DNA of 64,000 nt from Actinomycetes bacterium (lineage in GTDB: Bacteria > Actinomycetota > CALGFH01), in assembly GCA_036003705.1 (NCBI GenBank), contig DASYSE010000126.1, forward strand, positions 1,746 to 65,745. The letters are read 5' to 3'. Positions within the stretch are counted from its first letter, which is position 1. Each line of letters starts with the position of its first letter. A program made the position numbers and the translations under genes. Below are positions 13,972 through 34,931 of the stretch, piece by piece. The notes beneath the pieces are model-generated. The model saw only the letters and a program-made list of their open reading frames with translations. It was not told where the DNA came from and searched no databases.

Positions 13972-14030
13972 CCATGTGGGGAAGCTCCGGCTCCACCCCA
14001 CCGCCACGCTGGCGCGCCGGTGCCACGGCC
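13972..14030. repeat. copy A of a ~58-bp imperfect direct repeat (partner at 16006..16063)
   Basis: ccatgtggggaagctccggctccaccccaccgccacgctggcgcgccggtgccacggcc versus ccaggtgggaagctccggctccccgcaaccgccacgcaagcgcgcctgtgccttggtcc, same orientation, about 80-85% identity. Confidence 0.55.
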
Positions 14031-14199
14031 AGGGTGATCGCCTTCCACACCCTGGACACGCGCGGTCGCTGAGGCCGGCGACCGCTGGTCGTTCCGAGCC
14101 GCGGAACGCGATGCGATGAACGCTTCGATCCCGTCGAGGACCCGCGGCAGCCCGAAGGTGCCCGGCCTGCGCCGTCACCGCGCTCTGGGCCGCGCCCAC

Positions 14200-15938: not shown

Positions 15939-16005
15939 GAGCCTCCCTTGGTCAATGCAAGAACCCCACTCCCCCCAAAACGGGCTCCCAAGGCCAGCCT
16001 CGATC

Positions 16006-16063
16006 CAGGTGGGAAGCTCCGGCTCCCCGCAACCGCCACGCAAGCGCGCCTGTGCCTTGGTCC
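16006..16063. repeat. copy B of the ~58-bp direct repeat flanking the ABC-2 operon
   Basis: See copy A. Lies in the divergent promoter region between the ABC ATPase start (15938) and the YbjN-like gene (16087). Confidence 0.55.
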
Positions 16064-16086
16064 GTCTCAACTGTAGTCTCGGGGGT

Positions 16087-16590: not shown

Positions 16591-16641
16591 TTTTACCCGT
16601 CTCTACCTGGACATACGCGTCTGACCAGGGGAAACGCCCCC

Positions 16642-16670
16642 TTGACGGGCCTGGTGCCGCCTTCTAGATT
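16642..16670 (+). promoter_or_regulatory. sigma70-like promoter candidate (TTGACG-17-TAGATT) giving a ~350-nt leader before apgM
   Basis: cTTGACGggcctggtgccgccttcTAGATTg read directly from the sequence. Confidence 0.3.
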
Positions 16671-17031
16671 GCGCTTCGCCCCGAGGGGCCGACGCGGTTG
16701 GACTGGGAAATCCGGATAGGAGTTCCTGCTAGAAGGGCTGACGGGCCCGGACGGCGCGTCGCGGACGGCGGGTACGCGCATCCTGCTGCATCGCGGCGAG
16801 GTCCAAGCGGCCTCAGGGTCGTAGGACGGGACTCTCTCGAGTCGTGCTCGGGAAGGCCACGGGAGTTCCTCGGGGCGCCGATGACCCCCAGGGGCCCAAT
16901 CGGCCGGGAGCAGGCGGGCTTGCCCGCCGGTCAACCGGACGGGGTTCCTGGGGGTCGTCACTCTTTTCGCCCCAGCCGCCTGCGGCCCGTAGACTCGCAC
17001 CAAGTGTCCGCTGCAGCCCACGGAGGCGCCC

Positions 17032-18243
17032 ATGTCGCTCACCACCGATTCCGTTGTGACCGAGATGGCCAGGCCGGAGGGCAAGAAGGCGCTCCTGTTG
17101 GTGATGGACGGTCTCGGCGGCTACCGGACCGCCGAGCGGGGCTCGGAGCTGACCGAGGCCGCCACCCCCAACCTCGACCGGCTGGCCGGCGAGGGTTCCC
17201 TCGGCCTGCATGACCCGGTCACCCGGGGCATCACCCCCGGGTCCGGCGCCGGCCACCTGGGCCTGTTCGGCTACGACCCGCTGGCCTACGAGATCGGCCG
17301 GGGCGCCCTCTCGGCGGCCGGCATCGGCTTCGAGCTCCAGCCCGGCGACGTGGCCGCCCGGATCAACTTCTGCACCCTCGCCCCAGACGGGAACGTCGCC
17401 GACCGCCGGGCCGGACGGCTCCCCACCGAGGAGGCGGCCGGCATCTGCGCGCTGCTGATGCGCGAGGTCCGCCTGGAAGGGGTCGAGTTCTTCCTCCAGC
17501 CCGAGCGGGAGCACCGCGGCCTGCTGGTGCTGCGCGGGCAGGGCCTGGACCGGGACCTGACCGACACCGACCCGCAGCGCGAGGGCGTGCCGCCGCTGGA
17601 ACCGCAGGCCCGCTCGCCCGAGGCCACCCGGACCGCCGAGCTGGTCAAGCGCCTGCTCGACCAGGCCCGCTCCCTGCTCGCCGACCGCGAGCGCGGCAAC
17701 TTCCTGCTCCTGCGCGGCTTCGACAGCGTCAAGGAGCTGCCGAGCTTCCCGGACCGCTACCAGGTCAGGGCGCTGGCCATCGCCGCCTACCCGATGTACG
17801 TCGGCATCTCGCGGCTGCTCGGCTTCCAGACCCACCAGGTCGACGGGGCCGCCCCCGAGGAGGTCGACGCCCTGGCCGAGCTGCTGCCAGCCCACGATTT
17901 CGTGTTCATGCACATCAAGAAGACCGACTCGGCCGGTGAGGACGGCGACTTCGAGCGCAAGGTCGCCGCCATCGAGGAGGTCGACTCGCTCGTCCCGCGG
18001 ATGCTGGACGCCGGGGTCGACGTCCTGGCCGTCACCGGCGACCACTCCACCCCGGCCCAGATGGCCGCCCACTCCTGGCACCCGGTCCCTGTGCTGCTGT
18101 GGGGCGGCACCGCCGCCGCCGACGGCCTGCCCGGCTTCGACGAGGTCAACTGCCGCCAGGGGTCGCTCGGCCGCTTCGAGGCCAAGCATCTCCTGCCCCA
18201 GCTGCTCGCCGCCGCCGGACGCCTGGCCAAGTACGGCGCCTGA
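17032..18243 (+). CDS. apgM: cofactor-independent phosphoglycerate mutase, archaeal-type (ApgM family)
   Basis: LLLVMDGLGG...TPNLD...VAVTGDHSTP matches the metalloenzyme/ApgM family. Confidence 0.8.
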   Translation: MSLTTDSVVTEMARPEGKKALLLVMDGLGGYRTAERGSELTEAATPNLDRLAGEGSLGLHDPVTRGITPGSGAGHLGLFGYDPLAYEIGRGALSAAGIGFELQPGDVAARINFCTLAPDGNVADRRAGRLPTEEAAGICALLMREVRLEGVEFFLQPEREHRGLLVLRGQGLDRDLTDTDPQREGVPPLEPQARSPEATRTAELVKRLLDQARSLLADRERGNFLLLRGFDSVKELPSFPDRYQVRALAIAAYPMYVGISRLLGFQTHQVDGAAPEEVDALAELLPAHDFVFMHIKKTDSAGEDGDFERKVAAIEEVDSLVPRMLDAGVDVLAVTGDHSTPAQMAAHSWHPVPVLLWGGTAAADGLPGFDEVNCRQGSLGRFEAKHLLPQLLAAAGRLAKYGA

Positions 18244-20354: not shown

Positions 20355-20873
20355 GTGGTCTATCTCGTGCGTCACGCCCACGCCGGCAGGAAATCGGAGT
20401 GGCAGGGCCCAGACCGGGCCAGGCCGCTGTCGGCGGAAGGACGCATGCAGGCCCTCGGGCTGATCGACCGGCTACGCGACCACCGGGTGCGCCGCGTGCT
20501 CTCCAGCCCGGCCGAGCGCTGCCTGCAGACGGTCGAGCCGCTGGCCGGCCGGCTCGGACTGGCGGTGGAGCCGAGCGACGCCCTCGGGGTCGACGGGTCG
20601 GCGGCCGGCGTGCTGGAGCTGCTGGCCAGCCCGGGCCTGCACCAGACGGTACTGTGCACCCATGGCGAGATCATCGGCGAGGTGTTCGACCGGCTACGGG
20701 ACGTCGGTATCGAGCTGTCGGACCAGCCCCGGTGGCCCAAGGGCTCGATCTGGGTCATCGGCCACGACGGCGGCCAGGCCTGGAAGGGCAGCTACCTGAG
20801 GCCGCTGTCGGTGCCGGCCGCCGGGTCCCCGTGGGCCACGGTGACGCCGGGGAGCAAGGAGGACGCGGGATGA
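20355..20873 (+). CDS. histidine phosphatase family protein (SixA-like phosphohistidine phosphatase)
   Basis: VVYLVRHAHAG...GPDRARPLSAEGRMQA...VLCTHGEII has the RHG motif. GTG start with GGGAGG 9 nt upstream. Confidence 0.75.
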   Translation: MVYLVRHAHAGRKSEWQGPDRARPLSAEGRMQALGLIDRLRDHRVRRVLSSPAERCLQTVEPLAGRLGLAVEPSDALGVDGSAAGVLELLASPGLHQTVLCTHGEIIGEVFDRLRDVGIELSDQPRWPKGSIWVIGHDGGQAWKGSYLRPLSVPAAGSPWATVTPGSKEDAG

Positions 20874-22357
20874 AGGAGCGAGAGGCGAAGCTGGCCGTGC
20901 CGGTCGCCTTCGACCTGCCAGAGCTTGGCGGCCCCGACGACGACTTCCTGGCCGAACCTCAGGCACCGAGGCGGCTGCGGACCACCTACTACGACACCCC
21001 CGATCTCCGGCTGGCCCGCTGGGGTGTCAGCCTGCGACACCGGCCAGGCGAGGGCTGGACGGTGAAGCTGCCCGAGGGCCAGGACGGGGTCCTGCTCGTC
21101 CGCGGTGAGCACGTCTTCCAGGGCGACGCCCGCAAGCCGCCGGCCGAGGCCGTGGCGCTGGTGCGGGCGTTCGTGCGCACCGCCCAGCTGTCGCCGGCGG
21201 TGCGCATGCGCACCCTGCGCCACCCCGTCGAGTTGCGCGACCCCGCCGGCGGACGGCTGGCCGAGCTGGTCGACGACCAGGTGCAGGTGCTGGACGGCCG
21301 CCGGATCGTTGGCCGTTTCCGCGAGATCGAGGTCGAGCTGGCCGAGGAGGCCGACCCCGGCGTGCTCGACCAGGTGCTGGACCGGCTGTTCCAGGCCGGA
21401 GCCCAGGCGGCCGAGCCGACCCCCAAGTACCTGCGCGCGCTCGGCGGCCGCGAGCGCGCGCTCGGCCCCGAGGTCGTCGAGCTGGAGGTGGACGCCGAGG
21501 CCACCGTGGAGGCACTGCTCCGCCACGACCTCGCCGCCAGCACCCTGCGGCTGTTCCGGCACGAGGCCGGGGTCCGGATCGGCGAGGACCCGGAGGCGGT
21601 GCATCAGGCCAGGGTGGCCACCCGCCGGGTGCGGTCCACCCTGCGGACCTTCTCGAGCCTGCTCGAACCGGAGTGGACCGACCCGCTCCGCGACGAGCTC
21701 AAGTGGCTGGCCGACCTGCTCGGCGCCGTCAGGGACGCAGACGTGCTGCTGGCCCGGTTCCAGCAGCACCTGGCGGCCCTGCCGGCCGCCGACGCCAAGG
21801 CCGGTTCCCGGCTGCTGGCCGGCCTGGTCGAGCAGCGCGAGACCGCCCGCCGGCGGCTGCTGCCCGGCATGGCCGAGCCCCGCTACGCCGCCCTGCTCGA
21901 CGGCCTGGTCGCGGCCGCGGCCGCGCCGGTGCTGCTGCCAGGGACCGACCGTCCGGCCGCCGAGGTGATGCCGGCGCTGGTCGCCAAGCCGTGGAAGAGG
22001 CTGCGCAAGGCGGTGAAGCAGGCCGGCGGCGACCCGCCCGACGACCAGCTCCACCAGATCCGCATCCGGGCCAAGCGCGCCCGCTACGCCGCCGAGGCGG
22101 TCGAGCCGGTGATCGGCAACCCGGCCGAGCGGTTCGCCGACGCCGCCGCCGACCTCCAGGGTGTGCTCGGCGACCACCACGACGCGGTCGTCGGCGAGCA
22201 GTGGCTGCGACAGGCCGCCGCCTCGGCCAGGCGCGACGCCGCGCTTCTGGCCGGGCTGCTGATCGCCGCCGAGCGGGCCAGTGCCGCCGCCTCCCGCGAC
22301 GCCTGGCGGTCGGTCTGGAACGCGCTCGACCGCAAGAAGCTGCGTGCATGGCTGTGA
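20870..22357 (+). CDS. CYTH and CHAD domain-containing protein
   Basis: N-terminal EAKL...YYDTPDLRLAR...FREIEVEL is a CYTH triphosphate-tunnel signature. The C-terminal Arg/His-rich helices match CHAD. ATGA overlap with the phosphatase gene. Confidence 0.8.
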   Translation: MKEREAKLAVPVAFDLPELGGPDDDFLAEPQAPRRLRTTYYDTPDLRLARWGVSLRHRPGEGWTVKLPEGQDGVLLVRGEHVFQGDARKPPAEAVALVRAFVRTAQLSPAVRMRTLRHPVELRDPAGGRLAELVDDQVQVLDGRRIVGRFREIEVELAEEADPGVLDQVLDRLFQAGAQAAEPTPKYLRALGGRERALGPEVVELEVDAEATVEALLRHDLAASTLRLFRHEAGVRIGEDPEAVHQARVATRRVRSTLRTFSSLLEPEWTDPLRDELKWLADLLGAVRDADVLLARFQQHLAALPAADAKAGSRLLAGLVEQRETARRRLLPGMAEPRYAALLDGLVAAAAAPVLLPGTDRPAAEVMPALVAKPWKRLRKAVKQAGGDPPDDQLHQIRIRAKRARYAAEAVEPVIGNPAERFADAAADLQGVLGDHHDAVVGEQWLRQAAASARRDAALLAGLLIAAERASAAASRDAWRSVWNALDRKKLRAWL

Positions 22358-22405
22358 GCCGACCGCCCCGGACCAGCCGTCCAGCGTCCGCGGCATGCTG
22401 AAGCG

Positions 22406-22753
22406 GTGGACGGCGACCGGCGCGAGCCCGACTACCGCTTCTCCCTGGCCAACGAGCGGACCCTGCTGGCCTGGGTGCGGACCGCCCTCGCCCTGGACGC
22501 GGCCGGTCTCGGGGTGATCCGGTTCGCGCCGACGCTGGGTGGCCCTGGCGGCCGCGAGGCGGTCGGCGCCATCCTGATCCTGCTCGGCGCCATCACCGCC
22601 TGGAGCGGTTACCAGCGGTTCCTCTCCGCCGACCGGGCCATCCGCGCCGGCACCCCCCTGTCGGCCCACGCCGCCCCCCGGATCCTCGCCGCCGCCATGG
22701 CCGTGCTGTCGCTGGGCATCCTCGCGATGCTGCTGGTCGACCGGCTCGACTGA
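22406..22753 (+). CDS. DUF202 (YidH) family membrane protein
   Basis: PDYRFSLANERTLLAWVRTALAL plus two TM helices. Confidence 0.65.
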   Translation: MDGDRREPDYRFSLANERTLLAWVRTALALDAAGLGVIRFAPTLGGPGGREAVGAILILLGAITAWSGYQRFLSADRAIRAGTPLSAHAAPRILAAAMAVLSLGILAMLLVDRLD

Positions 22754-22756
22754 CGG

Positions 22757-24034
22757 TCAGGCCACCGGCCCCGGGGGGCCCGCGACCGGCAGGGTGACCG
22801 TGAAGGTGCTGCCGCGGCTGAGCTCGCTGTCGACCCGGACCGTGCCGCCGTGGGCCTCGGCGACGTGGCGGACGATGGCGAGGCCGAGGCCGGTCCCTCC
22901 GGTCTGGCGGGCCCTTGCCTTGTCGACCCGGTAGAAGCGCTCGAAGATGCGTGGCAGCTCGGCGGCCGGGATGCCCTCGCCGGTGTCGGCCACCTGGAGC
23001 GCGGCCCGGCTCTCGGTGGCGTCCAGGCGGACGCAGACGGTCCCCTTGGCGGGGGTGTAGCGCAGCGCGTTGTCGATCAGGTTGGACAGCAGCAGCCCGA
23101 GCTGGGCCCGGTCGCCACGCACGGCGACGCTGGGCCGCAGCTCGGTGCTGAGCCTGACGCGCCGCTCCTCGGCCCGGTCGGCGTAGCCGCCGACCACCTC
23201 CTTGACCAGCCCGACCAGGTCGACCGGCTCGACGTCGAGGGTTCCCCGCTCGACCCGCGAGAGGTCGAGCAGGTCCCTGGCCAGGACGTCGAGGCGCTCG
23301 GCCTCCCAGCCGATCCGGACCGCGAAGCGGCGGCCGGCCTCCGGGTCCTCGGGCAGGGCGGTCAGCAGGGTCTCGGCAAGGGCCCGCACGGCCGCCACCG
23401 GCGTCTTCAGCTCGTGGGAGGCGTTGGCCACGAAGTCGCGGCGCAGCACCTCGAGCCGGCGGCGCTGGGTGATGTCGGCCATGGTGACCACGATCCGCCC
23501 GGTCGGGCCCCGGTCGGCCAAGGGGAAGGCGCGAAGGGCCAGGGTGCGGGGCTCCGGGAACACCATGGTCAGGTTGCCGACCACCGGTGCCCCCGCCTCG
23601 GCCGCTCTCTCGGCCAGCTCGCTGACCTGGGGGACGCCGAGCACCCGCTGGACCGGCAGCCCCGGACGCAGGTCGTCGGGAAGCCCGAACCAGGACCGGG
23701 CGGCCGGGTTGGCGACCAGCAGCCGGCCGGCGCCGTCCAGCAGCAGCACGCCGTCGTCGAGGGCATCGAGGATCTGACCGGCCCGATCGCGTTCCTCGGT
23801 CAGCCCGTCGAGCCGCTCGCGCAGGCGGGTGGTGATGGCGCTCAGCTCGTTGGTCAGCCCCTGCACGTCGTCCGGCTCGGTCCAGCGCCAGCTGGGAAGG
23901 GTGCTGTCGGCCAGGCGGTGGACGGTCCGGCGCAGGGCGGCGACCGGCCGTCCCACCGCTCTGGCGGTGAGGAAGGCCAGCACCGCCGCCGCCACCAGAC
24001 CGACCCCGATCGCGATCAGGGTGGGCGTTGGCAC
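22757..24034 (-). CDS. sensor histidine kinase (PhoR/SenX3-like)
   Basis: HELKTPVAAV (H-box), DNALRYT (N-box), DTGEGIP, GGTGLGLAIV (G-boxes). Lies immediately downstream of phoU. Confidence 0.85.
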   Translation of the reverse strand: MPTPTLIAIGVGLVAAAVLAFLTARAVGRPVAALRRTVHRLADSTLPSWRWTEPDDVQGLTNELSAITTRLRERLDGLTEERDRAGQILDALDDGVLLLDGAGRLLVANPAARSWFGLPDDLRPGLPVQRVLGVPQVSELAERAAEAGAPVVGNLTMVFPEPRTLALRAFPLADRGPTGRIVVTMADITQRRRLEVLRRDFVANASHELKTPVAAVRALAETLLTALPEDPEAGRRFAVRIGWEAERLDVLARDLLDLSRVERGTLDVEPVDLVGLVKEVVGGYADRAEERRVRLSTELRPSVAVRGDRAQLGLLLSNLIDNALRYTPAKGTVCVRLDATESRAALQVADTGEGIPAAELPRIFERFYRVDKARARQTGGTGLGLAIVRHVAEAHGGTVRVDSELSRGSTFTVTLPVAGPPGPVA

Positions 24035-24049
24035 GGTCGTCGATCGCTC

Positions 24050-24733
24050 CTAGACGTCCTCGACGCCGGCCCGGATCGCCTTGGAGGGCACGAGCTCCTT
24101 GACCTCGCCGGTGACGATGAACACCACCTGCTCGCCGATGTCCACCGAGTGGTCGCCGAGCCGTTCGAGGTAGCGGGCGACCAGGATCATGCGGCTGGCC
24201 CACTCCAGCGCCCGGTCGTCGGTGGCCCGGTCGATCTGCCGGAAGATCTCGCTGTTCAGGCGGTCCAGCGGCTGGTCGAGGATGGGCAGGCGCTCGGCCA
24301 GCTCCAGGTCGCGCCTGGCGAAGCAGGTCATGGCCGCGGCCACCATCCGCTGGGCGTGGGAGCCCATCTCGGTCAGGGTGGACTGGATCTCGGGGACCGG
24401 CGGGTAGTCCTTGGTGATGCGGACGAACTTGGCCATGTTCACGCACAGGTCGCCCATCCGCTCGATGTGCGAGTTGATGTGGAGCACGCCGGCCACCAGC
24501 CGGAGGTCCTTGGCCACCGGGGCCTGCAGGGCCAGGGTCCGCAGGATCTCCTGCTCGACCTCGACGTAGACTCGGTCGATCTGGTCGTCGCGCACGATGA
24601 CCTCGTCGGCCAGGGTGGTGTCGAACGAGGCCAGCGCCTCGAGGGTCCGCTCGAGCTGGCTCTGGACCAGCTGGCCCATCTGCAGCAGCTTCGCCTCGAG
24701 TCCCTCGAGGCGTTGTTCGAACGTGGTGCGCAC
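24050..24733 (-). CDS. phoU: phosphate signalling complex protein PhoU
   Basis: Two PhoU repeats (...DDQIDRVYVEVEQEILRTLALQAPVAKDLR... / ...LDRLNSEIFRQ...). GTG start at 24733, verified on the sequence. Confidence 0.9.
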   Translation of the reverse strand: MRTTFEQRLEGLEAKLLQMGQLVQSQLERTLEALASFDTTLADEVIVRDDQIDRVYVEVEQEILRTLALQAPVAKDLRLVAGVLHINSHIERMGDLCVNMAKFVRITKDYPPVPEIQSTLTEMGSHAQRMVAAAMTCFARRDLELAERLPILDQPLDRLNSEIFRQIDRATDDRALEWASRMILVARYLERLGDHSVDIGEQVVFIVTGEVKELVPSKAIRAGVEDV

Positions 24734-24896
24734 TCGGAACCCCCCTGGGCACCGTGCCGGGCTCGGGTTATTCGTCAGGTCATCGTACGCGCAGGTCGAA
24801 CACCGCGAGGTCCGGCAGGTGGCCGGAAGGGAAACGGACGGTGAAGGTTTCCCATCGCTCGTTGCCCGGACGCGCTGTGCGTGGAATTTTGGTGCC

Positions 24897-25586
24897 ATGC
24901 CGAAGGTGATGGTCGTCGACGACGAGGAGTCGCTGCTCGAGGCGATCCGCTACGCGCTGTCGCGCGAGGGCATCGAGGTGGTGACCGCGCGGGACGGCGG
25001 CGACGCCATCCGCGACTTCGAGGCCGAGCGGCCCGACCTGGTGGTGCTCGACCTGATGCTCCCGACCCTCAACGGCTGGGACGTGTGCCGCCGCATCCGC
25101 GCCAGCAGCCAGGTGCCGATCCTGATGCTCACCGCCCGCGACGCCGAGGTCGACCGGGTGGTCGGGCTGGAGATGGGGGCCGACGACTACGTCACCAAGC
25201 CGTTCTCCCTGCGTGAGCTGGTGGCCAGGGTCCGCGCCCTGCTCCGGCGGGCCGGCACCGCCCAGGGCGGGCTGCGCCCGGAGGCGCCGGTGCTGGAGGC
25301 GGCCGGCATCCGCCTGGACCAGGAGCGGCACGAGGTCAGCGTCCGCGGGACGCAGGTGAGCCTGCCCCTGAAGGAGTTCGAGCTGCTCGAGATCCTGATG
25401 GAGAACCGCAACCGGGTCCTGACCCGCCAGACGCTGATCGACCGGGTCTGGGGCTACGACTACGTCGGCGACACCAAGACCCTCGACGTGCACGTGAAGC
25501 GGTTGCGGGCCCGGGTCGAGCAGGACCGCCACGAGCCCAAGCTGATCGTGACCGTCCGCGGCGTGGGCTACCGGTTCGACGGCTAG
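24897..25586 (+). CDS. OmpR-family response regulator (PhoP/RegX3-like)
   Basis: MVVDDEESL...LVVLDLMLP...ADDYVTKPF plus a wHTH output domain. Divergent from phoU. Confidence 0.85.
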   Translation: MPKVMVVDDEESLLEAIRYALSREGIEVVTARDGGDAIRDFEAERPDLVVLDLMLPTLNGWDVCRRIRASSQVPILMLTARDAEVDRVVGLEMGADDYVTKPFSLRELVARVRALLRRAGTAQGGLRPEAPVLEAAGIRLDQERHEVSVRGTQVSLPLKEFELLEILMENRNRVLTRQTLIDRVWGYDYVGDTKTLDVHVKRLRARVEQDRHEPKLIVTVRGVGYRFDG

Positions 25587-25721
25587 CGCTGGTTGTTCAC
25601 TTTCGGCTGCATGCAAGCTTCCCATCCCGTTCATCTTCCGTTCATGTTCCGTCGCCTGCTGCGTCAGCGACCGCCCGTACCGTCGCCCCGGATCGACACG
25701 TTCTCTAGGAGGCATGCAGGT

Positions 25722-26687
25722 ATGACGCGACGGATGCGACGCTGCGGTGGGCTGCTCGGCCTGACCCTGGCGCTCGCCCTGGTCGCCGCCGCATGCGGCG
25801 GCGACGACGACAGTGGGACCACCGGCGGCGGTGGGACCCAGCTCTCGGGCACGATCAACATCGACGGCTCGAGCACGGTCGCGCCGCTGAGCGAGGCCGC
25901 TGCCGAGCTGTTCCAGGAGCAGAACTCGGGCGTCAGGGTGACGGTGGGCACCTCCGGTACGGGCGGTGGCTTCGAGAAGTTCTGCGCCGGCGAAACCGAC
26001 ATCTCCGATGCGTCCCGCGCGATCGAGGACGACGAGAAGCAGGCCTGCCAGAGCAAGGGGATCAAGTACGAGGAGGTCCAGGTCGCCAACGACGGGCTCT
26101 CGGTGGTGGTGAACCCACAGAACAACTGGGCCAAGTGCCTGACCGTGGCGCAGCTCAAGAAGATCTGGGACAAGGGCAGCAAGGTCAACAACTGGAACCA
26201 GGTCGACCCGAGCTTCCCCAACGAGCCGCTGAAGCTGTTCGGTGCCGGCACCGACTCGGGGACCTTCGACTACTTCACCAAGGCGATCAACGGTGAGGAG
26301 GGCCGCAGCCGGTCCGACTATTCGGCGACCGAGGACGACAACGTCACCGTGACCGGTGTCAGCGGCACCAAGGGCGGCCTTGGCTACTTCGGCCTGTCCT
26401 ACCTGCAGGAGAACGAGGGCAAGATCCAGGGCGTCCAGGTCGACGGCGGCGGCGGCTGTGTCGCCCCGACGGTCGACACGGTCCAGGATGGCAGCTACAC
26501 GCCGCTGTCGCGGCCGCTGTTCATCTACCCCAGCGACAAGGCGTTGGAGCGCCCCGAGGTCAAGGCCTTCCTCGAGTACTACGTGAACAACTACCAGAAG
26601 ATCGCCGAGGATGCCCTGTTCGTCCCCCTGACCGATGAGCAGGCGGTCGAGGCCAAGGGGAAGATCGCCCAGCTCGCAGCCAGCTAG
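25722..26687 (+). CDS. pstS: phosphate ABC transporter substrate-binding lipoprotein PstS
   Basis: Lipobox LVAAACGG followed by GSSTVAPL...TGGGF..., the PstS fold. AGGAGG upstream of ATG 25722. Confidence 0.9.
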   Translation: MTRRMRRCGGLLGLTLALALVAAACGGDDDSGTTGGGGTQLSGTINIDGSSTVAPLSEAAAELFQEQNSGVRVTVGTSGTGGGFEKFCAGETDISDASRAIEDDEKQACQSKGIKYEEVQVANDGLSVVVNPQNNWAKCLTVAQLKKIWDKGSKVNNWNQVDPSFPNEPLKLFGAGTDSGTFDYFTKAINGEEGRSRSDYSATEDDNVTVTGVSGTKGGLGYFGLSYLQENEGKIQGVQVDGGGGCVAPTVDTVQDGSYTPLSRPLFIYPSDKALERPEVKAFLEYYVNNYQKIAEDALFVPLTDEQAVEAKGKIAQLAAS

Positions 26688-26714
26688 GTCGACCCGGGCG
26701 AAGAGGACTCGACG

Positions 26715-27665
26715 TTGCAAGCCGCACCGTCCCGCGCGATCCCCAGGGAGCCGGTCCCGCCCCTGGGGGTCGCTCGCCCGCGCTGGGGCGAGCGGGTGAT
26801 CGTCGGCTTGCTGTTCCTGTGCGGGCTGCTGTCGGTCGCGACGACGCTGGCGATCGTTCTGTCGTTGCTCCAGCCGGTGCTCGACTTCTTTTCCGAGGTC
26901 AGCCTCGGTGAGTTCTTCGGTGGGCGGGACTGGGCGCCGCTGTTCAACCCGCCGTCGTTTGGGGTGCAGCCGCTGCTGCTGGCCACCTTCACCACGACGA
27001 TCTGGGCGCTGCTGATCTGCATCCCGTTCGGGCTGGGGTCGGCCATCTACCTCAGCGAGTACGCCAGCCCCCGGGTGCGCAAGGTGCTGAAACCGATCCT
27101 CGAGATCCTGGCCGGCATCCCAACCGTCGTCTATGGCTTCTTTGCCTTGACGTTGGTGTCGCCGCTGTTGCAGGACGTCTGGTTCTTCAGCGACAAGAAA
27201 CCCGACCTGTTCAACGCCCTGGGTCCCGGCCTGGTCATGGGGATCATGATCCTGCCGACGGTGGCGTCGCTGTCGGAGGATGCGATGTCGGCGGTCCCCC
27301 AGGGGCTGCGCGCCGGCGCCTACGCCCTTGGCAGCACCAAGCTGCAGGTGAGCACGCGGGTGGTCGTTCCCGCGGCGATCTCGGGCATCGTCGCCTCGTT
27401 CGTGCTGGCCATCTCCCGGGCCGTGGGCGAGACGATGATCATGCTGATTGCGGCCGGCAACAACCCCAACTTCACCCTGGACCCCAGAGAGGGCGTCCAG
27501 ACCATGACCGCCTTCATCGGCGCGACCGGCATCGGTGACGTGCCCCAGGGGACGACCGGCTACCTGACCATCTTCGCGGTCGGGGCCACCCTGTTCGTGA
27601 TCACGCTGGTGATCAATCTGATCGCGATCCGCCTGGTGCGCCGGTTCCGGGAGGTGTACGAGTGA
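26715..27665 (+). CDS. pstC: phosphate ABC transporter permease PstC
   Basis: Six TM helices with the EAA-type loop of PstC. TTG start per the ORF track. Confidence 0.85.
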
Positions 27666-28567
27666 GCAGCGCCTCGTCGCGCTACGCCATCACCAAGGAG
27701 CACCGCGGAGCGGAGCGGGCCGGCGACCGCCGCAAGGCTCGAGTGTTCCAGGGGCTGATGTTGTTCAGCCTGGCGGTCGGCATCGTCACCTTGGTGGTGC
27801 TGCTCATCCAGGTGGTCGTGGAGGGCTGGCCGCGGCTGAACATGGATCTGCTCACCAATTTCCCGTCGCGGCGGCCGGCGAGATCCGGCGCCCAGTCGGC
27901 CATCTTCGGAACCATCTGGCTCATGGGGATCGTGATGGCGACCGCCGTCCCCCTCGGCTTTGGCGCCGCCATCTACCTGGAGGAGTACGCCGATCCCAAA
28001 CGCTGGTACAACCGCCTGATCGAGCTGAACATCCAGAACCTGGCCGCGGTCCCATCGATCGTCTACGGCATCCTCGGCCTGGCCTTCCTGGCCCGCGGGC
28101 CCTTTGGGCTTGGCCGGACGCTGCTGGCGGGCGGGTTGACCCTTACCCTGCTGGTGCTGCCCATCGTCATCATCTCCGGCCGCGAAGCCATCCGCGCGGT
28201 GCCCAACTCCATCCGCCAGGCATCGCTGGCGTTGGGCGCGACCAGGTGGCAGACCGTCCGCCGCCAGGTCCTCCCGGCCGCCATCCCGGGGATGGCCACC
28301 GGCACGATCCTTGGGCTTTCCCGCGCCATCGGGGAGACCGCCCCGCTGATCCTCCTCGGCGCGCTGACCTTCGTCACCTTCAACCCCGACGGGCTGACCA
28401 GCCAGTTCACCGCCCTCCCAGTCCAGATCTTCAACTGGATCTCGCGGCCTCAAGAGGAGTTCAAGGTGCTGGCCGCGGCGGCGATCGTGGTCCTGCTGGT
28501 GGTCCTGCTGGCCATGAACGCGACCGCGATCTGGCTACGCAACCGGTTCTACCAGCGCCGATGGTGA
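27662..28567 (+). CDS. pstA: phosphate ABC transporter permease PstA
   Basis: Overlaps pstC by 4 nt; PstA-like TM topology. Confidence 0.85.
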
Positions 28568-28637
28568 CCGCTGGTGGCCAGCGCCCGCTCGGCGCGCGCA
28601 ATGTTGGCACACGACGACAGATCTGGGCGATGACCGG

Positions 28638-29534
28638 ATGGCGCAAGGACGGACCGAAATGACCCAGGAAGACCGAGAGGATCCATCGGCCACCACCGAC
28701 GGCCCACGCATCGGGACCGAGGTCAAGCCGCGCGAGCGGACGGATACACCCACCGAGACGGTGTTCCGGCTCGACGACGTCCACGTCTACTACGGCGGCT
28801 TCCTGGCCCTGCGCGGGGTGAACCTGGATATCAACGAGAAGGAGATCACGGCGTTCATCGGCCCGTCCGGGTGCGGCAAGAGCACGCTCATCCGCTGCCT
28901 GAACCGCATGAACGACCTGATCCCCGAGGCCAGGGTCGAGGGCAAGATCGAGTACCACGACCAGGATCTGTACGGCGACGAGGTCGACCCGGTCGAGGTA
29001 CGCCGGCGCATCGGCATGGTGTTCCAGAAGCCCAACCCGTTCCCCAAGTCGATCTACGAGAACATCGCCTTCGGGCCCAAGGTCATCGGCATGAAGCCGG
29101 CCAGCATGGATCAGCTGGTGGAGGAATCCTTGCGTAGAGCGGCCCTGTGGGACGAGGTCAAGGACAAGCTCAAGCAGAACGCGCTCTCCCTGTCGGGCGG
29201 CCAGCAGCAGCGGCTCTGCATCGCCAGGGCGATTGCCGTCTCGCCCGACGTGATCCTGATGGACGAGCCGGCCTCGGCCCTCGACCCGGTCTCCACCGGG
29301 CGGATCGAGGACCTGATGGAGCAGCTCAAGCAGGACTACACGATCGTGATCGTCACCCACAACATGCAGCAGGCGGCCCGCATCTCCGACCGCACGGCGT
29401 TCTTCAACGCCGAGCCGGCCGAGGGAACCGGGGACCGCACCGGCGTGCTGGTCGAGTACGACCGCACCGACGCGATCTTCACCCACCCGGCCGACAAGCG
29501 CACCGAGGACTACATCACCGGCCGCTTCGGGTAG
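28638..29534 (+). CDS. pstB: phosphate import ATP-binding protein PstB
   Basis: [29 protein letters not shown]. An alternative start at M8 would be 28659. Confidence 0.9.
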
Positions 29535-29601
29535 GTCGGCTGGCTCTCGGCCCTGCCGCGCTGGTACGGTTCGCGTGCTTCCCACGTCGACGGGAGGACG
29601 C

Positions 29602-30231
29602 TTGAAGCTGCGGATCTTTCCTCGCGAGGAGTCCTATTTCGACCTGTTCGACGAGGTCGCGGCCAACCTCGCCGAGGCGGCCAGGAACCTGCTGGACTTG
29701 GTCGAGGATTTCGTCGACCCGGAGATGAAGGCCAAGCGCCTGGTCGAGGCCGAGCACGAGGGCGACCGGCTCACCCACGCCATCTACTCCCGGCTCAACT
29801 CGACCTTCATCACCCCCTTCGACCGCGAGGACATCCACTCCCTCGCCGGGCACCTGGACGACGTGCTCGACTCCATCGAGGCGGCGGCCGACATGCTGGT
29901 GCTCCACAAGGTGACCGAGCCGCTGGACGCGGTGGTCGAGCAGGCCCGGCTGATCGACCGGGCGGCCAGGGCGACCGCCGACGGCCTGCGCAGCCTGCGC
30001 GGGCTCAAGCAGGAGCCGCTGCGGTCCTACCTGATCAACATCAACGAGCTGGAGAACGACGGCGACCGGCTGTACCGCCGGGCAAGGGCCGACCTCTACA
30101 ACTTCAACGCCGAGCACCCGGCCCGCTACGTGCTCATCTGGAAGGACATCGTCGAGCAGCTCGAGGAGGCGCTCGACGGCTTCGAGCACGTCGCCAACAC
30201 CGTGGAGACCGTCATCATCAAGCATGCCTGA
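29602..30231 (+). CDS. DUF47 PhoU-like phosphate transport regulator (Pit accessory protein)
   Basis: LKLRIFPREESYFDLFDE is a typical DUF47 N-terminus. TTG start with GGGAGGA upstream. Confidence 0.8.
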   Translation: MKLRIFPREESYFDLFDEVAANLAEAARNLLDLVEDFVDPEMKAKRLVEAEHEGDRLTHAIYSRLNSTFITPFDREDIHSLAGHLDDVLDSIEAAADMLVLHKVTEPLDAVVEQARLIDRAARATADGLRSLRGLKQEPLRSYLININELENDGDRLYRRARADLYNFNAEHPARYVLIWKDIVEQLEEALDGFEHVANTVETVIIKHA

Positions 30232-31351
30232 CCTGGCCCTCGTCGCGGTCGTCGCCATCGTCCTCCTGGCCCTGGTGTTCGACTTCACCAACGGCTTCCA
30301 CGACGCCGCCAACTCGATCGCCACCGTGGTCTCGACCCGGGTGCTGACCCCGCGGATCGCGGTCGTCTGGGCGGCGCTGTTCAACTTCGTCGCCTTCCTC
30401 GTCTTCCAGACCCACGTGGCCAACACCGTCGGCAAGACCGTCGACCCGTCGGTGGTCAGCGAGGCGGTGATCTTCGCCGGGCTGGCCGGGGCCATCGCCT
30501 GGAACCTCCTCACCTGGTGGCTGGGCCTGCCGACCTCCTCGTCGCACGCGCTGATCGGCGGCTTCGCCGGGGCCGGGGTCGCCAAGGCCGGCTTCGGCGC
30601 GCTGGACGCCAGCAGCCTGCAGAAGATCATCCTGTTCATCCCGCTGTCGCCGCTGTTCGGGCTGGCCCTCGGCTTCCTGCTGATGCTGGCCAGCCTCTGG
30701 ATCTTCCGGCGGTCCAGCCCGGCCAGGGTCGACGGGCTGTTCCGCCGCCTCCAGCTGCTCTCGGCGGCGGCGTTCAGCCTCGGCCACGGCGGCAACGACG
30801 CCCAGAAGACCATGGGCATCATCGCCGCGCTGCTGGTCGGCTCCGGCTACCTCAAGCTCGAGGACAACGGCGACCTCCCGGTGCCCCTTTGGGTGGTGCT
30901 GGCCGCCCATGCGGCCATCGCGCTCGGCACCCTGACCGGCGGCTGGCGGATCGTGAGGACCCTCGGCCAGCGGATCACCGCGCTCAAGCCGGTCGGCGGC
31001 TTCTCGGCCGAGACCGCCGCCGCCTGCTCGCTGTACCTGGCCACCGCCCTGGGCATCCCCGTGTCCACCACCCACACCATCACCGGGGCGGTCGTCGGCG
31101 TCGGGGCGACCCGGCGGCTGTCGGCGGTCCGCTGGGGGGTTGCCGGGCGGATCGTCTGGGCCTGGGTCCTGACCATCCCGACCGCCGGGGCGGTGGCGGC
31201 GGTCATCTACGCGATCACCGTCTCCCCGTTCGCGCTGGCCGCGCTCGTCCTGGCCGGCGCGGCGGTGGTGGCCGCGATGATGGCCCGCGGACGCCGGGCA
31301 GCCAGCCGGACGGCCGAGCCGGCAGAGCCGGTCGAGGCCGTGGAGCGCTGA
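30224..31351 (+). CDS. pitA: inorganic phosphate transporter (PiT family, PitA)
   Basis: FDFTNGFHDAANSIATVVSTR and a repeated GHGGNDAQKTMGII signature. 8-nt overlap with the DUF47 gene. Confidence 0.9.
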   Translation: MPDLALVAVVAIVLLALVFDFTNGFHDAANSIATVVSTRVLTPRIAVVWAALFNFVAFLVFQTHVANTVGKTVDPSVVSEAVIFAGLAGAIAWNLLTWWLGLPTSSSHALIGGFAGAGVAKAGFGALDASSLQKIILFIPLSPLFGLALGFLLMLASLWIFRRSSPARVDGLFRRLQLLSAAAFSLGHGGNDAQKTMGIIAALLVGSGYLKLEDNGDLPVPLWVVLAAHAAIALGTLTGGWRIVRTLGQRITALKPVGGFSAETAAACSLYLATALGIPVSTTHTITGAVVGVGATRRLSAVRWGVAGRIVWAWVLTIPTAGAVAAVIYAITVSPFALAALVLAGAAVVAAMMARGRRAASRTAEPAEPVEAVER

Positions 31352-31437
31352 GAAGGGTCCGCTCGGGTCCGCTCGCCGTCCTCGACGTCGGCTCGAACAC
31401 CATCCCCCCAGGCTCCGCACGAGGTATCTTCTTGTGC

Positions 31438-32349
31438 ATGCTGAAGGCAACGTTGCTGAAGGCGGCGGGTTCGGCGTTCCTGCAGCGTCAGGTGACCGCC
31501 AACCCGATCGCCCGCCGGGTCGCCGACCGGTTCATCGCCGGCCACACCCTCGACGAGGCCGAGCATGCGATCCGCCGGCTGAACGCCCGCGGGGTGTCGG
31601 TCGCGCTCGACCACCTGGGCGAGAACACCGAGTCCGAGACCCAGGCCCGCGACTCGACCGGCGCCTACCTGGCCGCCCTCGACCGCATCCAGGAGCGCGG
31701 CATGGACGCCAACACCTCGGTCAAGCTGACCGCGATGGGCCTCGACATCCGGCCGGAGCTGGCATTGGAGGAGGCCTCCAAGGTGGCCGCGAGGGCCAAG
31801 GAGGTCGGCGTCATGGTCGGCGTCGACATGGAGGCCGGGGCCTACGTCGGGCGGACCCTCGACATCGTCGAGGCGCTGAAGCGCGACTACGACAACGTCG
31901 GCGTCTGCATCCAGTCCTACCTGTACCGCAGCCGCGACGACCTCGACCACCTGAACCAGCTCGGCGTCCCGGTCCGTCTGGTCAAGGGGGCCTACCAGGA
32001 GCCGCCCGAGGTCGCCTACCCGCAGAAGGCCAGCGTCGACCACGCCTACGCCCGCATGCTCGACTCGCTGATCGACCTCAACCCCTACCCGATGGTGGCC
32101 ACCCACGACCCGGCCATGGTCCGTCTCACCAAGGCCCTGGTCGCCAGGTACGGCCGCGACCGCGACACCTTCGAGTTCCAGATGCTCTACGGCGTCCGCC
32201 GCGATCTCCAGGAACAGGTCGTCGCCGAGGGCTACCGGCTCCGCGTCTACCTCCCCTACGGCACCCAGTGGTACCCCTACTTCATGCGCCGCCTCGCCGA
32301 ACGACCCGCCAACCTCTACTTCTTCCTCTCCAACCTGGTGAAGCGCTGA
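31438..32349 (+). CDS. proline dehydrogenase
   Basis: ...VKLTAMG...VRLVKGAY...YLPYGTQWYPYFMRRLAERPANLYFF matches monofunctional PRODH. Confidence 0.8.
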   Translation: MLKATLLKAAGSAFLQRQVTANPIARRVADRFIAGHTLDEAEHAIRRLNARGVSVALDHLGENTESETQARDSTGAYLAALDRIQERGMDANTSVKLTAMGLDIRPELALEEASKVAARAKEVGVMVGVDMEAGAYVGRTLDIVEALKRDYDNVGVCIQSYLYRSRDDLDHLNQLGVPVRLVKGAYQEPPEVAYPQKASVDHAYARMLDSLIDLNPYPMVATHDPAMVRLTKALVARYGRDRDTFEFQMLYGVRRDLQEQVVAEGYRLRVYLPYGTQWYPYFMRRLAERPANLYFFLSNLVKR

Positions 32350-32511: not shown

Positions 32512-33933
32512 ATGCTGGCCTGGGTGGTCGTCGGCGAGGAAGGGTGGCGGATGCGGCACGGGTCGTCCGGGGCTGCCGCCGCCCTCGGGCTGGTTGCCGT
32601 GCTCGTCCTCGGGGCGTGCGACTCGGGAGACGGCGGGCGCTATGCGGCCGAGGTCGTGCGGCCGGCCGAGGTGGTCGAGCGGGTCAGCGCACCCGGGGCG
32701 GTGCAGCCGGCGGGGCAGGCCGACCTGAAGGCGCCGGCCGCGGCCAGGGTCGAGCGGCTGGTCGTCAAGGACGGGCAGAAGGTGCGGAGCGGGCAGCTGG
32801 TGGCGGAGCTGTCCTCCGAACAGGTCGACGATCAGGTCCGGCAGGCGCAGGCGGCCGTCGACGCCGCGTCCGCGCTCGGCGGGGTGGCGCCGACGCTGCC
32901 CACCGGGTCAGCCCTCTCCGCCTTCCAGCAGGTCCAGTCGCAGGTCACCGCGACCAGCGCCGCCGTCATCGCCGCCCTGCGCTCGGCGCTGCCGTTGCTG
33001 CCGCGAGCCCAGCGGGCCCGGCTCCAGGCCAGGATCGACCGGGCGCAGGTCCGGGTGGCCGAGCTGGAGCGGCAGGCCGACCGGGCGGCCGAGGACGCGT
33101 CGGCCGCGGCCGACGCCCAGGCCGACTCCCTGCGGCGCTCGATCCAGGCGGCCACCGCCGCCCAGCGCGGCCAGGCGGAGCTGGCCCTCGAGCTGGCCAG
33201 CGACCAGCAGGAGCGCCTGACCCTGCGGGCGCCGCTGGCCGGCACCGTCCAGCTGGGCCGCTCGGGCGGTGGCGGCGGCACGGCCCTTCCCGACCTGCAG
33301 GGCCTGCCTCAGGGAGCCGAGCAGGCTCTCCAGGGGCTCGGCGGTGGGACCCAGCCCGCCCAGACCGGCCCGCCGCTGCGGGTCGGCGCCGAGGTCGCCG
33401 CCGGGCAGACCGTGGCCACCGTGTTCGACGTCAGCGACCTGCTGGTGGCCGCCGAGGTCGACGAGACCGACATCGCGCTGGTCCGGCCGGGGCAGGCGGC
33501 CCAGGTCGAGCTGGACGCCTTCCCGCAGGCCACCTTCGCGGCCACCGTGCGCCGGGTCGCGGTCGCCCCGACGGCCGGCCAGTCGGCCGCCGGCGGGGTC
33601 ACCTACCAGGTCGACCTGGCCCTTGGGGACGCCGAGTCGGCCGCCGCCGGCGCGGTCCGGCCGGTGCCGCGGGTCGGGATGACCGCCACCGCGGCCATCG
33701 AGGTCCGCAGGGCCGCCGGCAAGCTCTCGGTGCCCGGCTCGGCCCTGGTCGGCCGGTCCGGCGGTCAGGCCGTGTTCGTGGTGGAGAACGGCAAGGTCCG
33801 TCTGCGGCCGGTCCAGGTCGCCGCCGACGGCGAGGACCGGGTGGCGCTCGCCTCGGGTCTGCGCGAGGGCGAGCGGGTGGTGTCCCGCGGGGCCGAGCGC
33901 CTGCGCGACGGCCAGGACTGGCCGGGCGACTGA
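32512..33933 (+). CDS. efflux periplasmic adaptor (HlyD/MacA-like membrane fusion protein)
   Basis: N-terminal signal/anchor, long coiled-coil segments (QAQAAVDAA...RIDRAQVRVAELERQ), and a C-terminal beta-domain. Confidence 0.7.
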   Translation: MLAWVVVGEEGWRMRHGSSGAAAALGLVAVLVLGACDSGDGGRYAAEVVRPAEVVERVSAPGAVQPAGQADLKAPAAARVERLVVKDGQKVRSGQLVAELSSEQVDDQVRQAQAAVDAASALGGVAPTLPTGSALSAFQQVQSQVTATSAAVIAALRSALPLLPRAQRARLQARIDRAQVRVAELERQADRAAEDASAAADAQADSLRRSIQAATAAQRGQAELALELASDQQERLTLRAPLAGTVQLGRSGGGGGTALPDLQGLPQGAEQALQGLGGGTQPAQTGPPLRVGAEVAAGQTVATVFDVSDLLVAAEVDETDIALVRPGQAAQVELDAFPQATFAATVRRVAVAPTAGQSAAGGVTYQVDLALGDAESAAAGAVRPVPRVGMTATAAIEVRRAAGKLSVPGSALVGRSGGQAVFVVENGKVRLRPVQVAADGEDRVALASGLREGERVVSRGAERLRDGQDWPGD

Positions 33934-34010
33934 CGGTGGCCCAGCCGGGAGGTGGCGCCGGGAGCCCGCGGGTTGGCGGGGGGCCCGGGCGTCTCGAGCC
34001 CGGGCGACCG

Positions 34011-34694
34011 GTGGTGGAGGCCCTTGGGGTCAGCAAGGTGTACCGGCTGGATGGGGTCGAGGTGCGGGCGCTCGACGGGGTGGAGATGGTGGTGGAGCGG
34101 GGGGACTCGGTGGCGATCATGGGGCCGAGCGGGTCCGGCAAGTCGACCCTGCTCGGCCTGCTCGGCGGCCTGGACCGGCCGACCGGAGGGACGCTCCGGT
34201 TCGACGGCCGGGACGTCACCGGCCTGTCCGAGGACGAGCTGGCCGCGGTGCGCAACCGGGTCGTCGGCTTCGTCTTCCAGAGCTTCCAGCTGCTGGCGCG
34301 CACCCCCGCCGTGGCCAACGTCGGCCTGCCGCTGGTCTACCGCGGGCTCGGCCGGGGCGAACGCCGCCGGCTGGCGGTCGATGCGCTGCGGTCGGTCGGG
34401 CTGGCACACCGGCTGCAGCACCGGCCGTCGCAGCTCTCCGGCGGGGAGCAGCAGCGGGTGGCCATCGCCCGCGCTCTGGTCACCGAGCCGGCCATGCTGC
34501 TGGCCGACGAGCCCACCGGGAACCTCGACACCCGTTCCGGCGAGGAGGTGCTCGACCTGCTCGGCCGCCTCCACGACGAGCGCGGGGTGGCGGTGGTGGT
34601 GGTCACCCACGACCCAGGGGTGGCGGCCCGCCTCCGGCGCCGCGTCACCCTGCGCGACGGCCGCATGGTGTCGGAGCGGGAGCTGACGCGTTGA
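34011..34694 (+). CDS. MacB-like ABC transporter ATP-binding protein
   Basis: GPSGSGKSTLL, LSGGEQQRVAIARAL, LLADEPTGNLD. GTG start by amino-acid index. Confidence 0.85.
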   Translation: MVEALGVSKVYRLDGVEVRALDGVEMVVERGDSVAIMGPSGSGKSTLLGLLGGLDRPTGGTLRFDGRDVTGLSEDELAAVRNRVVGFVFQSFQLLARTPAVANVGLPLVYRGLGRGERRRLAVDALRSVGLAHRLQHRPSQLSGGEQQRVAIARALVTEPAMLLADEPTGNLDTRSGEEVLDLLGRLHDERGVAVVVVTHDPGVAARLRRRVTLRDGRMVSERELTR

Positions 34695-34715
34695 ACCGGA
34701 CGGGCCTGACCCTTG

Positions 34716-34930
34716 GGGTCCGGCCGGACGGGTCGTACCCCCGGGGTCCGGCCAGAGGGGCCCGGCCGGACGGGTCGTACCCCCGGGGTCCGGCCGGAGG
34801 GGTCCGGGGAACCCCGAAGGGGTGCCCCGGTGGATCGGGGAGCTCTTCCGAAGGGGTGCCCCGGTGGATCGGGAAGCGCTTCCGCACGGGTGCACCGGTG
34901 AATCGGGCGGCGCTTCCGAGGGGGCGCCCC
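34716..34930. repeat. tandem repeat array between the macB-like ATPase and permease genes
   Basis: A ~39-bp unit ccggacgggtcgtacccccggggtccggcc(a/g)gagggg occurs twice. A ~34-bp unit cttccgaaggggtgccccggtggatcggg occurs twice, with two further degenerate copies. Each unit holds a GGGG-n-CCCC mini-hairpin. Confidence 0.6.
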
Positions 34931-34931
34931 G

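Follow-up and report, generated by a model that had tools for sequence, protein, structure and literature searches.

Predicted phosphate-starvation control and uptake locus with a conserved phoU-kinase/divergent regulator gene order in an uncultured soil actinobacterium

The stretch of DNA analyzed here (64,000 nucleotides of contig DASYSE010000126.1 from an Actinomycetes bacterium, in the following the window) carries between positions 20355 and 31351 a cluster of twelve genes that we read, with a probability of roughly 85%, as the core locus for phosphate-starvation (Pho) control and phosphate (Pi) uptake of an uncultured high-GC soil actinobacterium. The genes for PhoU and a PhoR/SenX3-type histidine kinase follow each other on the minus strand, the gene for a RegX3/PhoP-type response regulator is divergent from phoU, and pstSCAB, a DUF47 gene and pit lie downstream of the regulator. 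A divergent regulator was found upstream of phoU in 67/67 related contigs. In 62/62, phoU was immediately followed by the kinase in the same orientation, with a regulator behind the kinase in 0/62. In addition, tandem direct repeats of the PHO-box type are present upstream of pstS as well as phoU and are conserved among relatives.

Layout and conservation of the signaling genes

The cluster had initially been described from the letters of the window and a list of their open reading frames (in the following the sequence-only reading). GC3 frame analysis and Pfam/NCBIfam profile searches were carried out over the coordinates of that description. The window has a GC content of 66-80%, third-position GC revealed one clear coding frame across 20.3-32.4 kb, and all twelve genes were confirmed at these coordinates in the families assigned to them. 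The profile searches bore out the gene identities, the layout with phoU and the kinase opposite a divergent regulator, and the co-occurrence of Pst, Pit, two PhoU-type proteins and a CYTH-CHAD/histidine phosphatase pair in one locus.

The kinase (22757-24034, minus strand; Pfam PAS, HisKA and HATPase_c) has a GTG start 15 nucleotides (nt) past the phoU stop codon. Its product contains only one transmembrane helix (residues 6-24), followed by PAS_4 (89-193), HisKA (198-264) and HATPase_c (307-418) domains, with the H-box HELKTP at His207. This combination of a membrane anchor and a cytoplasmic PAS domain, without an extracytoplasmic domain, represents the PhoR/SenX3 architecture, and in the PhoR design signal perception is intracellular (PMC4415409). 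PhoU (24050-24733, minus strand, GTG start) consists of two PhoU domains and scored 185 bits against TIGR02135 (phoU_full, cut-off 130). The OmpR-family regulator (24897-25586, plus strand; Response_reg and Trans_reg_C) combines a receiver with a winged-helix OmpR-type output domain, and its nearest known relatives are phosphate regulators; the best solved homologue was Mycobacterium tuberculosis RegX3 (2oqr, 278 bits), followed by MtrA with 202 bits.

The sample of relatives was obtained by a metagenome scan with PhoU, which yielded 80 loci with a PhoU identity of 73-97% that were mapped with the window proteins; only contigs with enough flanking sequence were scored (n=67 on the regulator side and n=62 on the kinase side). 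The corresponding contig scan with the kinase became saturated by matches to the generic peptide FERFYRVD and gave nothing closer than homologues of 30-46% identity from 80 genomes. More than 100 kinase homologues of 85-96% identity were detected in soil metagenomes and metagenome-assembled genomes labelled Actinomycetota, and a homology search found a kinase-identical protein in an identical locus (L082), although a look-up of the exact kinase sequence had given no record. The synteny check that the sequence-only reading had proposed upheld its gene order, and the core triad of kinase, phoU and regulator is fixed in a clade of considerable size.

Six longer relative contexts with Pfam labels, including a 303-kb ENA contig, provided a view of the surrounding modules. 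The regulator/phoU-kinase core was present in all of them (6/6), pstSCAB-DUF47-pit in 5/6, and the SixA-like/CYTH-CHAD/DUF202 genes were found after the kinase in 3/6. A fourth context (L081) carries the same module genes, with a Pfam label on CHAD only and the SixA-like gene detected by tblastn only; the L085 context ends at the kinase, and L086 has a YfhO gene at this position. The regulator is mostly followed by pstS, in some loci by DUF47-pit directly or by the pst operon in opposite orientation. The outer modules (pst cassette, ppx and DUF202) vary even among close relatives.

PHO boxes and putative promoters

The sequence-only reading had suggested a search for PHO boxes in the divergent promoter and upstream of pstS, and GTTCAY direct repeats with an 11-nt period were present in both of these intergenic regions and kept in relatives. 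The pstS promoter carries three in-phase 11-nt repeats (CTTCCCATCCC GTTCATCTTCC GTTCATGTTCC; 25618-25650, plus strand) as well as a single repeat further upstream (GTTCACTTTCG; 25595-25605, plus strand), which is offset by 1 nt from the phase of the main array. The GTTCAC of this single repeat is invariant in a five-locus alignment and occurs in most relatives with pstS downstream. The main array is likewise kept in relatives, with drifting spacer DNA. A zero-mismatch search for GTTCAY-N5-GTTCAY gave a single match in the 64-kb window, which was located upstream of pstS (GTTCAT-N5-GTTCAT). The CCGTACCGTCG block upstream of pstS is invariant in relatives, as is the ribosome-binding site AGGAGG (25707-25712, plus strand), and conservation suggests TACCGT (25678-25683, plus strand) as a putative -10-like element.

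Similarly, three 11-nt direct repeats (cTTCACCGTCC gTTTCCCTTCC gGCCACCTGCC; 24814-24846, minus strand) were recognized by matrix and conservation in the phoU-kinase promoter, with a conservation of 80-99% at the core positions across 62 distinct relatives. The GGTCATCGTAC block is among the best-conserved intergenic stretches (approximately 70-99% per base, with the most distant relatives included), and conservation points to TACGAT (TAnnnT; 24782-24787, minus strand) as a putative -10-like hexamer. The array starts 58 nt before the TAnnnT hexamer at phoU and 60 nt before it at pstS, which gives the two predicted promoters a similar geometry.

As a semi-independent test, a position matrix was built from the pstS-promoter repeats of the relatives only, with the window and its identical twin excluded, and both strands of the window were scanned. 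The first two ranks fell in the pstS promoter (34.8 and 17.0 bits) and ranks three and four in the phoU promoter on the minus strand (12.3 and 6.5 bits), while every other site in the window scored below 0; the maximum over 20 shuffles was 11.5. The consensus GTTCAYCTYCC agrees with the PhoP DRu of Streptomyces (GG/TTCAYYYRG/CG) over positions 1-8 of the latter, and in Streptomyces this PhoP repeat is located near the -35 of pstS and phoU and is needed for their activation (PMC2275107). The predicted sites in the window form tandem direct repeats at pstS and at the promoter of the system's own signaling genes, and the extension of the Streptomyces-type PHO box (GTTCAYC, 11-nt period) to this lineage makes its Pho regulon predictable from metagenomes.

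Several further signals were considered in and around these regions. A conserved TTGCC...AATGTT pair ending approximately 7 nt before the regulator ATG may indicate a leaderless regulator transcript in the inner clade. A hairpin (CCTTGG...CCAAGG) between the regulator stop codon and the pstS PHO box was dropped after RNAalifold found no consensus pairs in 22 sequences, and the inverted repeat GGGAAAC-N11-GTTTCCC in the divergent promoter is better read as overlapping direct repeats with 11-nt periodicity. The terminator scan gave two terminator-like matches, which is chance level, and the Rfam scan detected nothing in the Pho region and only four tRNAs at 4.6-5.0 kb.

Proposed mode of regulation

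A RegX3-like regulator together with PHO repeats at pstS and phoU marks the locus as a predicted self-regulated Pho system, and its mechanism is most likely the one described for Streptomyces and E. coli. By analogy with these systems, phoU and the kinase would be co-transcribed and the regulator expressed divergently, followed by pstSCAB with a PhoP-type promoter of its own and by the DUF47 (pap)-pit pair. When Pi is plentiful, PstB and PhoU would keep the kinase in its phosphatase state via the PAS domain; the role of PhoU on PhoR and Pst is described in PMC4415409. When Pi is scarce, the kinase would be freed from the control by PstB and PhoU and phosphorylate the regulator. The phosphorylated regulator would then bind the tandem GTTCAYC repeats of 11 nt located immediately before the -35 of the pstS and phoU-kinase promoters and activate the phoU-kinase transcript and pstSCAB, probably together with the downstream pap-pit genes. 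As feedback, sensor and brake would be raised in fixed proportion from one autoregulated mRNA, with the regulator expressed from its own promoter.

The arrangement places sensor and brake on one predicted PhoP-dependent transcript and the regulator, immediately followed by the transporter genes, on the other strand. Its functional consequence, if any, is probably a fixed PhoU:PhoR stoichiometry, a refinement of a known system.

Proposed kinase-regulator partnership

From the invariant linkage of the genes and the operator-like repeats we infer that the kinase and the divergent regulator are partners. The alternative is that they belong to two half-systems, in which the kinase serves a regulator encoded elsewhere and another kinase serves the regulator encoded here.

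A number of observations weigh against or limit the case for the partnership or the placement of the locus as a Pho system. The two genes belong to separate transcription units, and both products scored below the curated PhoR and PhoB cut-offs. For the kinase, the scores were 282 vs 334 bits (PhoR, TIGR02966), 183 vs 390 bits (PRK11006) and 341 vs 400 bits (PnpS, NF046044); for the regulator, the score was 232 vs 296 bits with the PhoB equivalog TIGR02154, a proteobacterial model. The residues of DHp helix 1 and receiver helix 1 that carry specificity are almost invariant within the clade, with two subtypes outside of it, and too conserved for co-variation to be measurable, so that they argue neither for nor against the pairing. 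Some outer relatives (L142, L150 and L159) carry a second PhoP-like regulator, 57-60% identical, between DUF47 and pstB inside the pst-pit operon, and such a second regulator may also exist outside the visible 64 kb. A scan for consensus sigma-70 promoters gave 0 matches, and the promoter positions given above are taken from conservation only. Finally, Streptomyces pst and phoU mutants, unlike those of E. coli, do not derepress the regulon (PMC4415409), and the PhoU-brake step may for this reason not be directly transferable from E. coli.

The sub-cut-off PhoR, PnpS and PhoB scores count only weakly as negative evidence, because the models were built on other phyla: the PhoR and PnpS models derive from Proteobacteria and Firmicutes, and no SenX3 or actinobacterial PhoR model was among the 25 best families listed. 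The assignment to the family is accordingly based on context, on the match to RegX3 and on the PHO boxes.

Concerning context, the kinase is linked to phoU, pstSCAB and a PhoB/PhoP-type regulator in the window as well as in relatives, and the triad of kinase, phoU and regulator is invariant even though the surrounding modules vary. No regulator co-transcribed with the kinase, the arrangement that the sequence-only reading had named as speaking against its own account, was found in the window or on the 62 related contigs. The nearest homologues of kinase and regulator in other Actinomycetota are adjacent, co-oriented pairs inside pst-phoU loci (L009, L011, L026, L035, L037, L065, L069 and L079). 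The 64-kb window holds no other OmpR-type pair; the only other receiver or OmpR-type proteins in it are an orphan GlnR and a receiver beside or fused to HD-GYP. In addition, the kinase's own promoter carries predicted PHO boxes that match the expectation for such a regulator. Taken together, these observations make two half-systems very unlikely and favor a predicted partnership of the kinase with the divergent regulator.

Phosphate transport genes

The regulator is followed on the plus strand by pstS (25722-26687), which encodes a phosphate-binding lipoprotein with a signal-anchor helix and a lipobox-like LVAAAC at its N-terminus that scored 302 bits against TIGR02136 (cut-off 206.6). The two permeases PstC (26715-27665; BPD_transp_1, six hydrophobic segments) and PstA (27662-28567; BPD_transp_1) and the ATPase PstB (28638-29534; ABC_tran, 112 bits), which shares 78-84% identity with its counterpart in most relatives, complete the operon, all on the plus strand.

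The DUF47/PhoU_div protein (29575-30231, plus strand) matched PF01865 with 95.5 bits and remained below TIGR00153 (64.5 vs 104.3 bits); the position of its start is uncertain by 9 codons, as the JGI annotation of the identical locus L082 gives a product of 209 aa. The protein corresponds to Pap, which is ancillary to Pit in Streptomyces. Its gene overlaps pit (30224-31351, plus strand) by 8 nt according to the ORF coordinates, as had been noted in the sequence-only reading, and the pair is kept in relatives; in Streptomyces, pap is paired with pitH1 (PMC7866108). Pit is a PHO4-family low-affinity phosphate transporter (PF01384, 316.9 bits), so that the family assignment held, but the name PitA did not, since the protein reached only 130 bits against the equivalog cut-off of 800.

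The segment 26300-28750, which comprises the 3' part of pstS, pstC, pstA and the 5' end of pstB, was only 65-70% identical to relatives or unalignable, with flanks at 84-91%, and its GC drops to 0.66-0.67. At the protein level, PstS, PstC and PstA were approximately 45-58% identical to most relatives and PstB, the regulator, PhoU and Pit 80-97%. The pst permease cassette looks like it was replaced by a divergent allele.

Past pit, the next gene encodes a proline dehydrogenase (approximately 31438-32349, as read from the identical locus L082). Many relatives carry ppx, encoding a 520-aa Ppx-GppA+HD exopolyphosphatase, between these two genes (L081:1208-2770 and L084:1173-2741). The gene is cleanly absent from the window (31352-31437), L082 and L105, which indicates a presence/absence polymorphism within the clade.

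Polyphosphate-associated genes

Three genes on the plus strand converge on the kinase. The first (20355-20873; GTG start, GGAGG ribosome-binding site) encodes a histidine phosphatase of the His_Phos_1 family (PF00300, E 2.3e-16) with the catalytic motif RHA at residues 6-8. Its top NCBIfam match was the MutT1 C-terminal domain with 74 bits, and it did not reach the cut-off of the SixA equivalog TIGR00249 (30.4 vs 74.5 bits). Judged by its sequence, it belongs to the His_Phos_1 superfamily, and the name SixA applies only in the form 'SixA-like'. The second gene (20870-22357) is coupled to it by an ATGA overlap at 20870-20873, in which the ATG of the second gene overlaps the TGA of the phosphatase gene, again in agreement with the earlier description. 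It encodes a YgiF-like CYTH(TTM)-CHAD protein with an N-terminal CYTH/TTM domain (44.2 bits) carrying ExExK (EREAK, residues 3-7) and a C-terminal CHAD domain (216.9 bits), and is a probable tripolyphosphatase or polyphosphate (polyP)-binding protein. The third gene (22406-22753) encodes a DUF202/YidH-type small membrane protein of 115 aa (PF02656, E 3.3e-17) and is separated from the convergent kinase by 3 nt. Two of its segments pass the hydropathy threshold and a third helix would be expected from sequence and family; its closest solved relatives were Vtc1 subunits (E approximately 0.005).

CHAD domains bind polyP and are often found downstream of TTM/CYTH domains (bioRxiv 10.1101/567040), and SixA, CHAD, PPX and PstS/PstC are typical neighbors of polyP kinases (PMC12995831). 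The SixA-like, CYTH-CHAD and DUF202 genes, together with ppx in many relatives, would represent a polyphosphate-associated module that accompanies Pho genes in many prokaryotes.

These genes could also be part of the Pho signaling circuit rather than passive neighbors, for example with the phosphatase acting on the phospho-histidine of the kinase, or with the TTM enzyme and a DUF202 channel acting like the eukaryotic VTC polymerase. Module genes adjoin the kinase in most close relatives, as the gene after the kinase was DUF202 in 33 of 55 contigs and CYTH-CHAD or the SixA-like gene in 10 (5 + 5), with other genes in the remaining 12. DUF202 is furthermore the membrane domain of Vtc1 and Vtc4, and an SPX-VTC-DUF202 architecture has been described (PMC12388464). 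On the other hand, DUF202 is located between the kinase and CYTH-CHAD in the inner sub-clade only. In the outer relatives L141 (10052-10246) and L142 (10063-10119) CYTH-CHAD abuts the kinase without DUF202, and no DUF202 was found in the CYTH-CHAD loci L009 and L077. The YfhO gene of L086 stands in place of the whole module, the module genes are convergent to the kinase and would be transcribed separately, and neighborhoods with SixA and CHAD are common around polyP kinases without a kinase-regulator pair (PMC12995831). An active role of the module in the circuit is very unlikely in view of these findings.

A more specific variant of this idea builds on VTC itself. The catalytic domain of Vtc4 has the TTM fold that is common to the CYTH domains, and CYTH-CHAD together with DUF202 could therefore be a split bacterial counterpart of VTC that makes polyP at the membrane or carries it across, in the background of the Pho system and with the SixA-like phosphatase as its regulator. 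VTC-like membership would call for a TTM domain coupled to DUF202 by fusion or as a conserved pair; the pairing observed here is limited to the inner sub-clade, and the 120 closest DUF202 homologues listed as well as the best 150 library representatives were all short stand-alone proteins without fusion partners. We consider a split VTC highly improbable, and the preferred reading of the three genes is that of a probable polyP-associated module next to the Pho genes.

Variation and origin of the gene order

The order of Pho genes was highly variable among the 80 genomes with distant kinase homologues. The arrangements encountered include pstSCAB-phoU-regulator-kinase and kinase-pstSCAB-phoU-regulator, phoU divergent from kinase-regulator (Geodermatophilus, as in Streptomyces) or from regulator-kinase (Euzebyales), a kinase divergent from pstSCAB-phoU-regulator (L077) and, once, a collinear pstB-phoU-kinase-regulator order (Acidimicrobiales, L079). 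By parsimony, the order in the window would most simply have arisen by one inversion of phoU-kinase in a collinear phoU-kinase-regulator operon, and an inversion of phoU only in the L079 layout would give the Streptomyces order.

Even though the window stems from an uncultured organism and carries the mosaic segment of lower GC and 65-70% identity to relatives in the pst operon, an assembly chimera or a strain-specific rearrangement without evolutionary persistence can be dismissed. Over 60 independent contigs, drawn from many samples of JGI, ENA and NCBI and among them some of 303, 135 and 120 kb in length, share this order, with junction regions conserved base by base, and neither chance nor misassembly accounts for it.

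Comparison with known Pho systems

The Streptomyces phoU/phoR-phoP cluster (SCO4228-4230) encodes the same three proteins, and in both cases phoU is joined to the two-component genes and not to pstSCAB. Also shared are a bidirectional promoter with 11-nt direct-repeat PHO boxes (GTTCAYY core) near the -35 and separate boxes at pstS (PMC2275107, PMC7866108). In contrast to Streptomyces, the kinase of the window is located downstream of phoU on the phoU strand and only the regulator is divergent, pstSCAB directly follows the regulator, and only one membrane helix, at the N-terminus, is present in the kinase. The sequence-only reading had correctly set its gene order against the Streptomyces layout, in which phoU is divergent from phoR-phoP (PMC7866108, PMC2275107). 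Mycobacterial SenX3-RegX3, the Pi-responsive system of mycobacteria (PMC4415409), includes the nearest solved homologue of the regulator, but senX3-regX3 form one operon there, and the PhoU homologue genes phoY1 and phoY2 as well as the pst genes are located elsewhere.

DUF47 and Pit, pstSCAB, CHAD and polyP enzymes are also found in one region in the Streptomyces pap-pitH1/pstSCAB/pptA(CHAD phosin)-nudA-ppk supercluster (PMC7866108). The window differs from it in several points: pap-pit is located behind pstB in the same orientation, CHAD is combined with a CYTH domain, a SixA-like phosphatase gene is present instead of the Nudix gene, the window has no ppk, and its cluster also includes the two-component genes and phoU. 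This cluster is best understood as the Streptomyces pap-pitH1 supercluster fused to the phoU/two-component cluster, minus ppk.

Among the loci of other Actinomycetota, the collinear ones (L009, L026, L035, L037 and L079) have a kinase of 42-53% and a regulator of 54-59% identity beside phoU/pst. L009 and L077 carry CYTH-CHAD, and L077 also SixA-like and DUF47 genes. However, all genes of the five collinear loci are on one strand, the kinase alone is divergent in L077, and none of them exhibits the kinase-phoU/regulator split. The polyP neighborhoods around PPK1, PPK2 or PPK3 contain SixA, CHAD, PPX and PstS/PstC (PMC12995831) and resemble the window, where the SixA-like and CHAD genes are translationally coupled beside Pi transport genes and ppx is present in relatives; they differ in that no polyphosphate kinase gene was found in the window.

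The locus is a gene-order variant of a well-studied system, without a new mechanism or component. Its significance had been overstated at first, since Pho gene order is highly variable and both superclusters (PMC7866108) and SixA/CHAD/PPX/Pst neighborhoods (PMC12995831) have already been described. It provides a clean, conserved example of re-partitioned Pho signaling genes in an abundant uncultured soil actinobacterial lineage.

Neighboring regions of the window

Upstream of the cluster, the region 12589-18243 carries an mshA-like GT4 gene, an ABC-2 exporter, YbjN (seen in relatives), a phosphoglycerate mutase of the metalloenzyme type and an NTP-transferase, and Rex, hemA and hemC are encoded downstream at 54820-57778. 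This wider neighborhood (mshA-like GT4, YbjN, hemA and hemC) presumably bears a loose resemblance to the mycobacterial senX3-regX3 region; a literature search on mycobacterial gpm1-senX3 synteny found no paper, and the metalloenzyme type of the phosphoglycerate mutase in the window limits the comparison further.

The orphan GlnR-type regulator (GlnR_1st and Trans_reg_C; 5634-6392, minus strand) lies beside a tRNA Lys-Glu-Asp-Phe cluster (4625-4994, minus strand). At 8709-10651, a gene for an RsiG-like protein, a cyclic di-GMP (c-di-GMP)-dependent anti-sigma factor, is followed by a receiver-domain match (9473-9787) and HD_5/HD-GYP (9833-10651); receiver and HD-GYP may form a response regulator-phosphodiesterase in a c-di-GMP module. 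Just downstream of the Pho cluster, a tripartite efflux-type operon occupies 32512-36116, with genes for a MacB/FtsX permease and a membrane-fusion protein of the HlyD type; in relatives, an ABC ATPase gene lies between the two.

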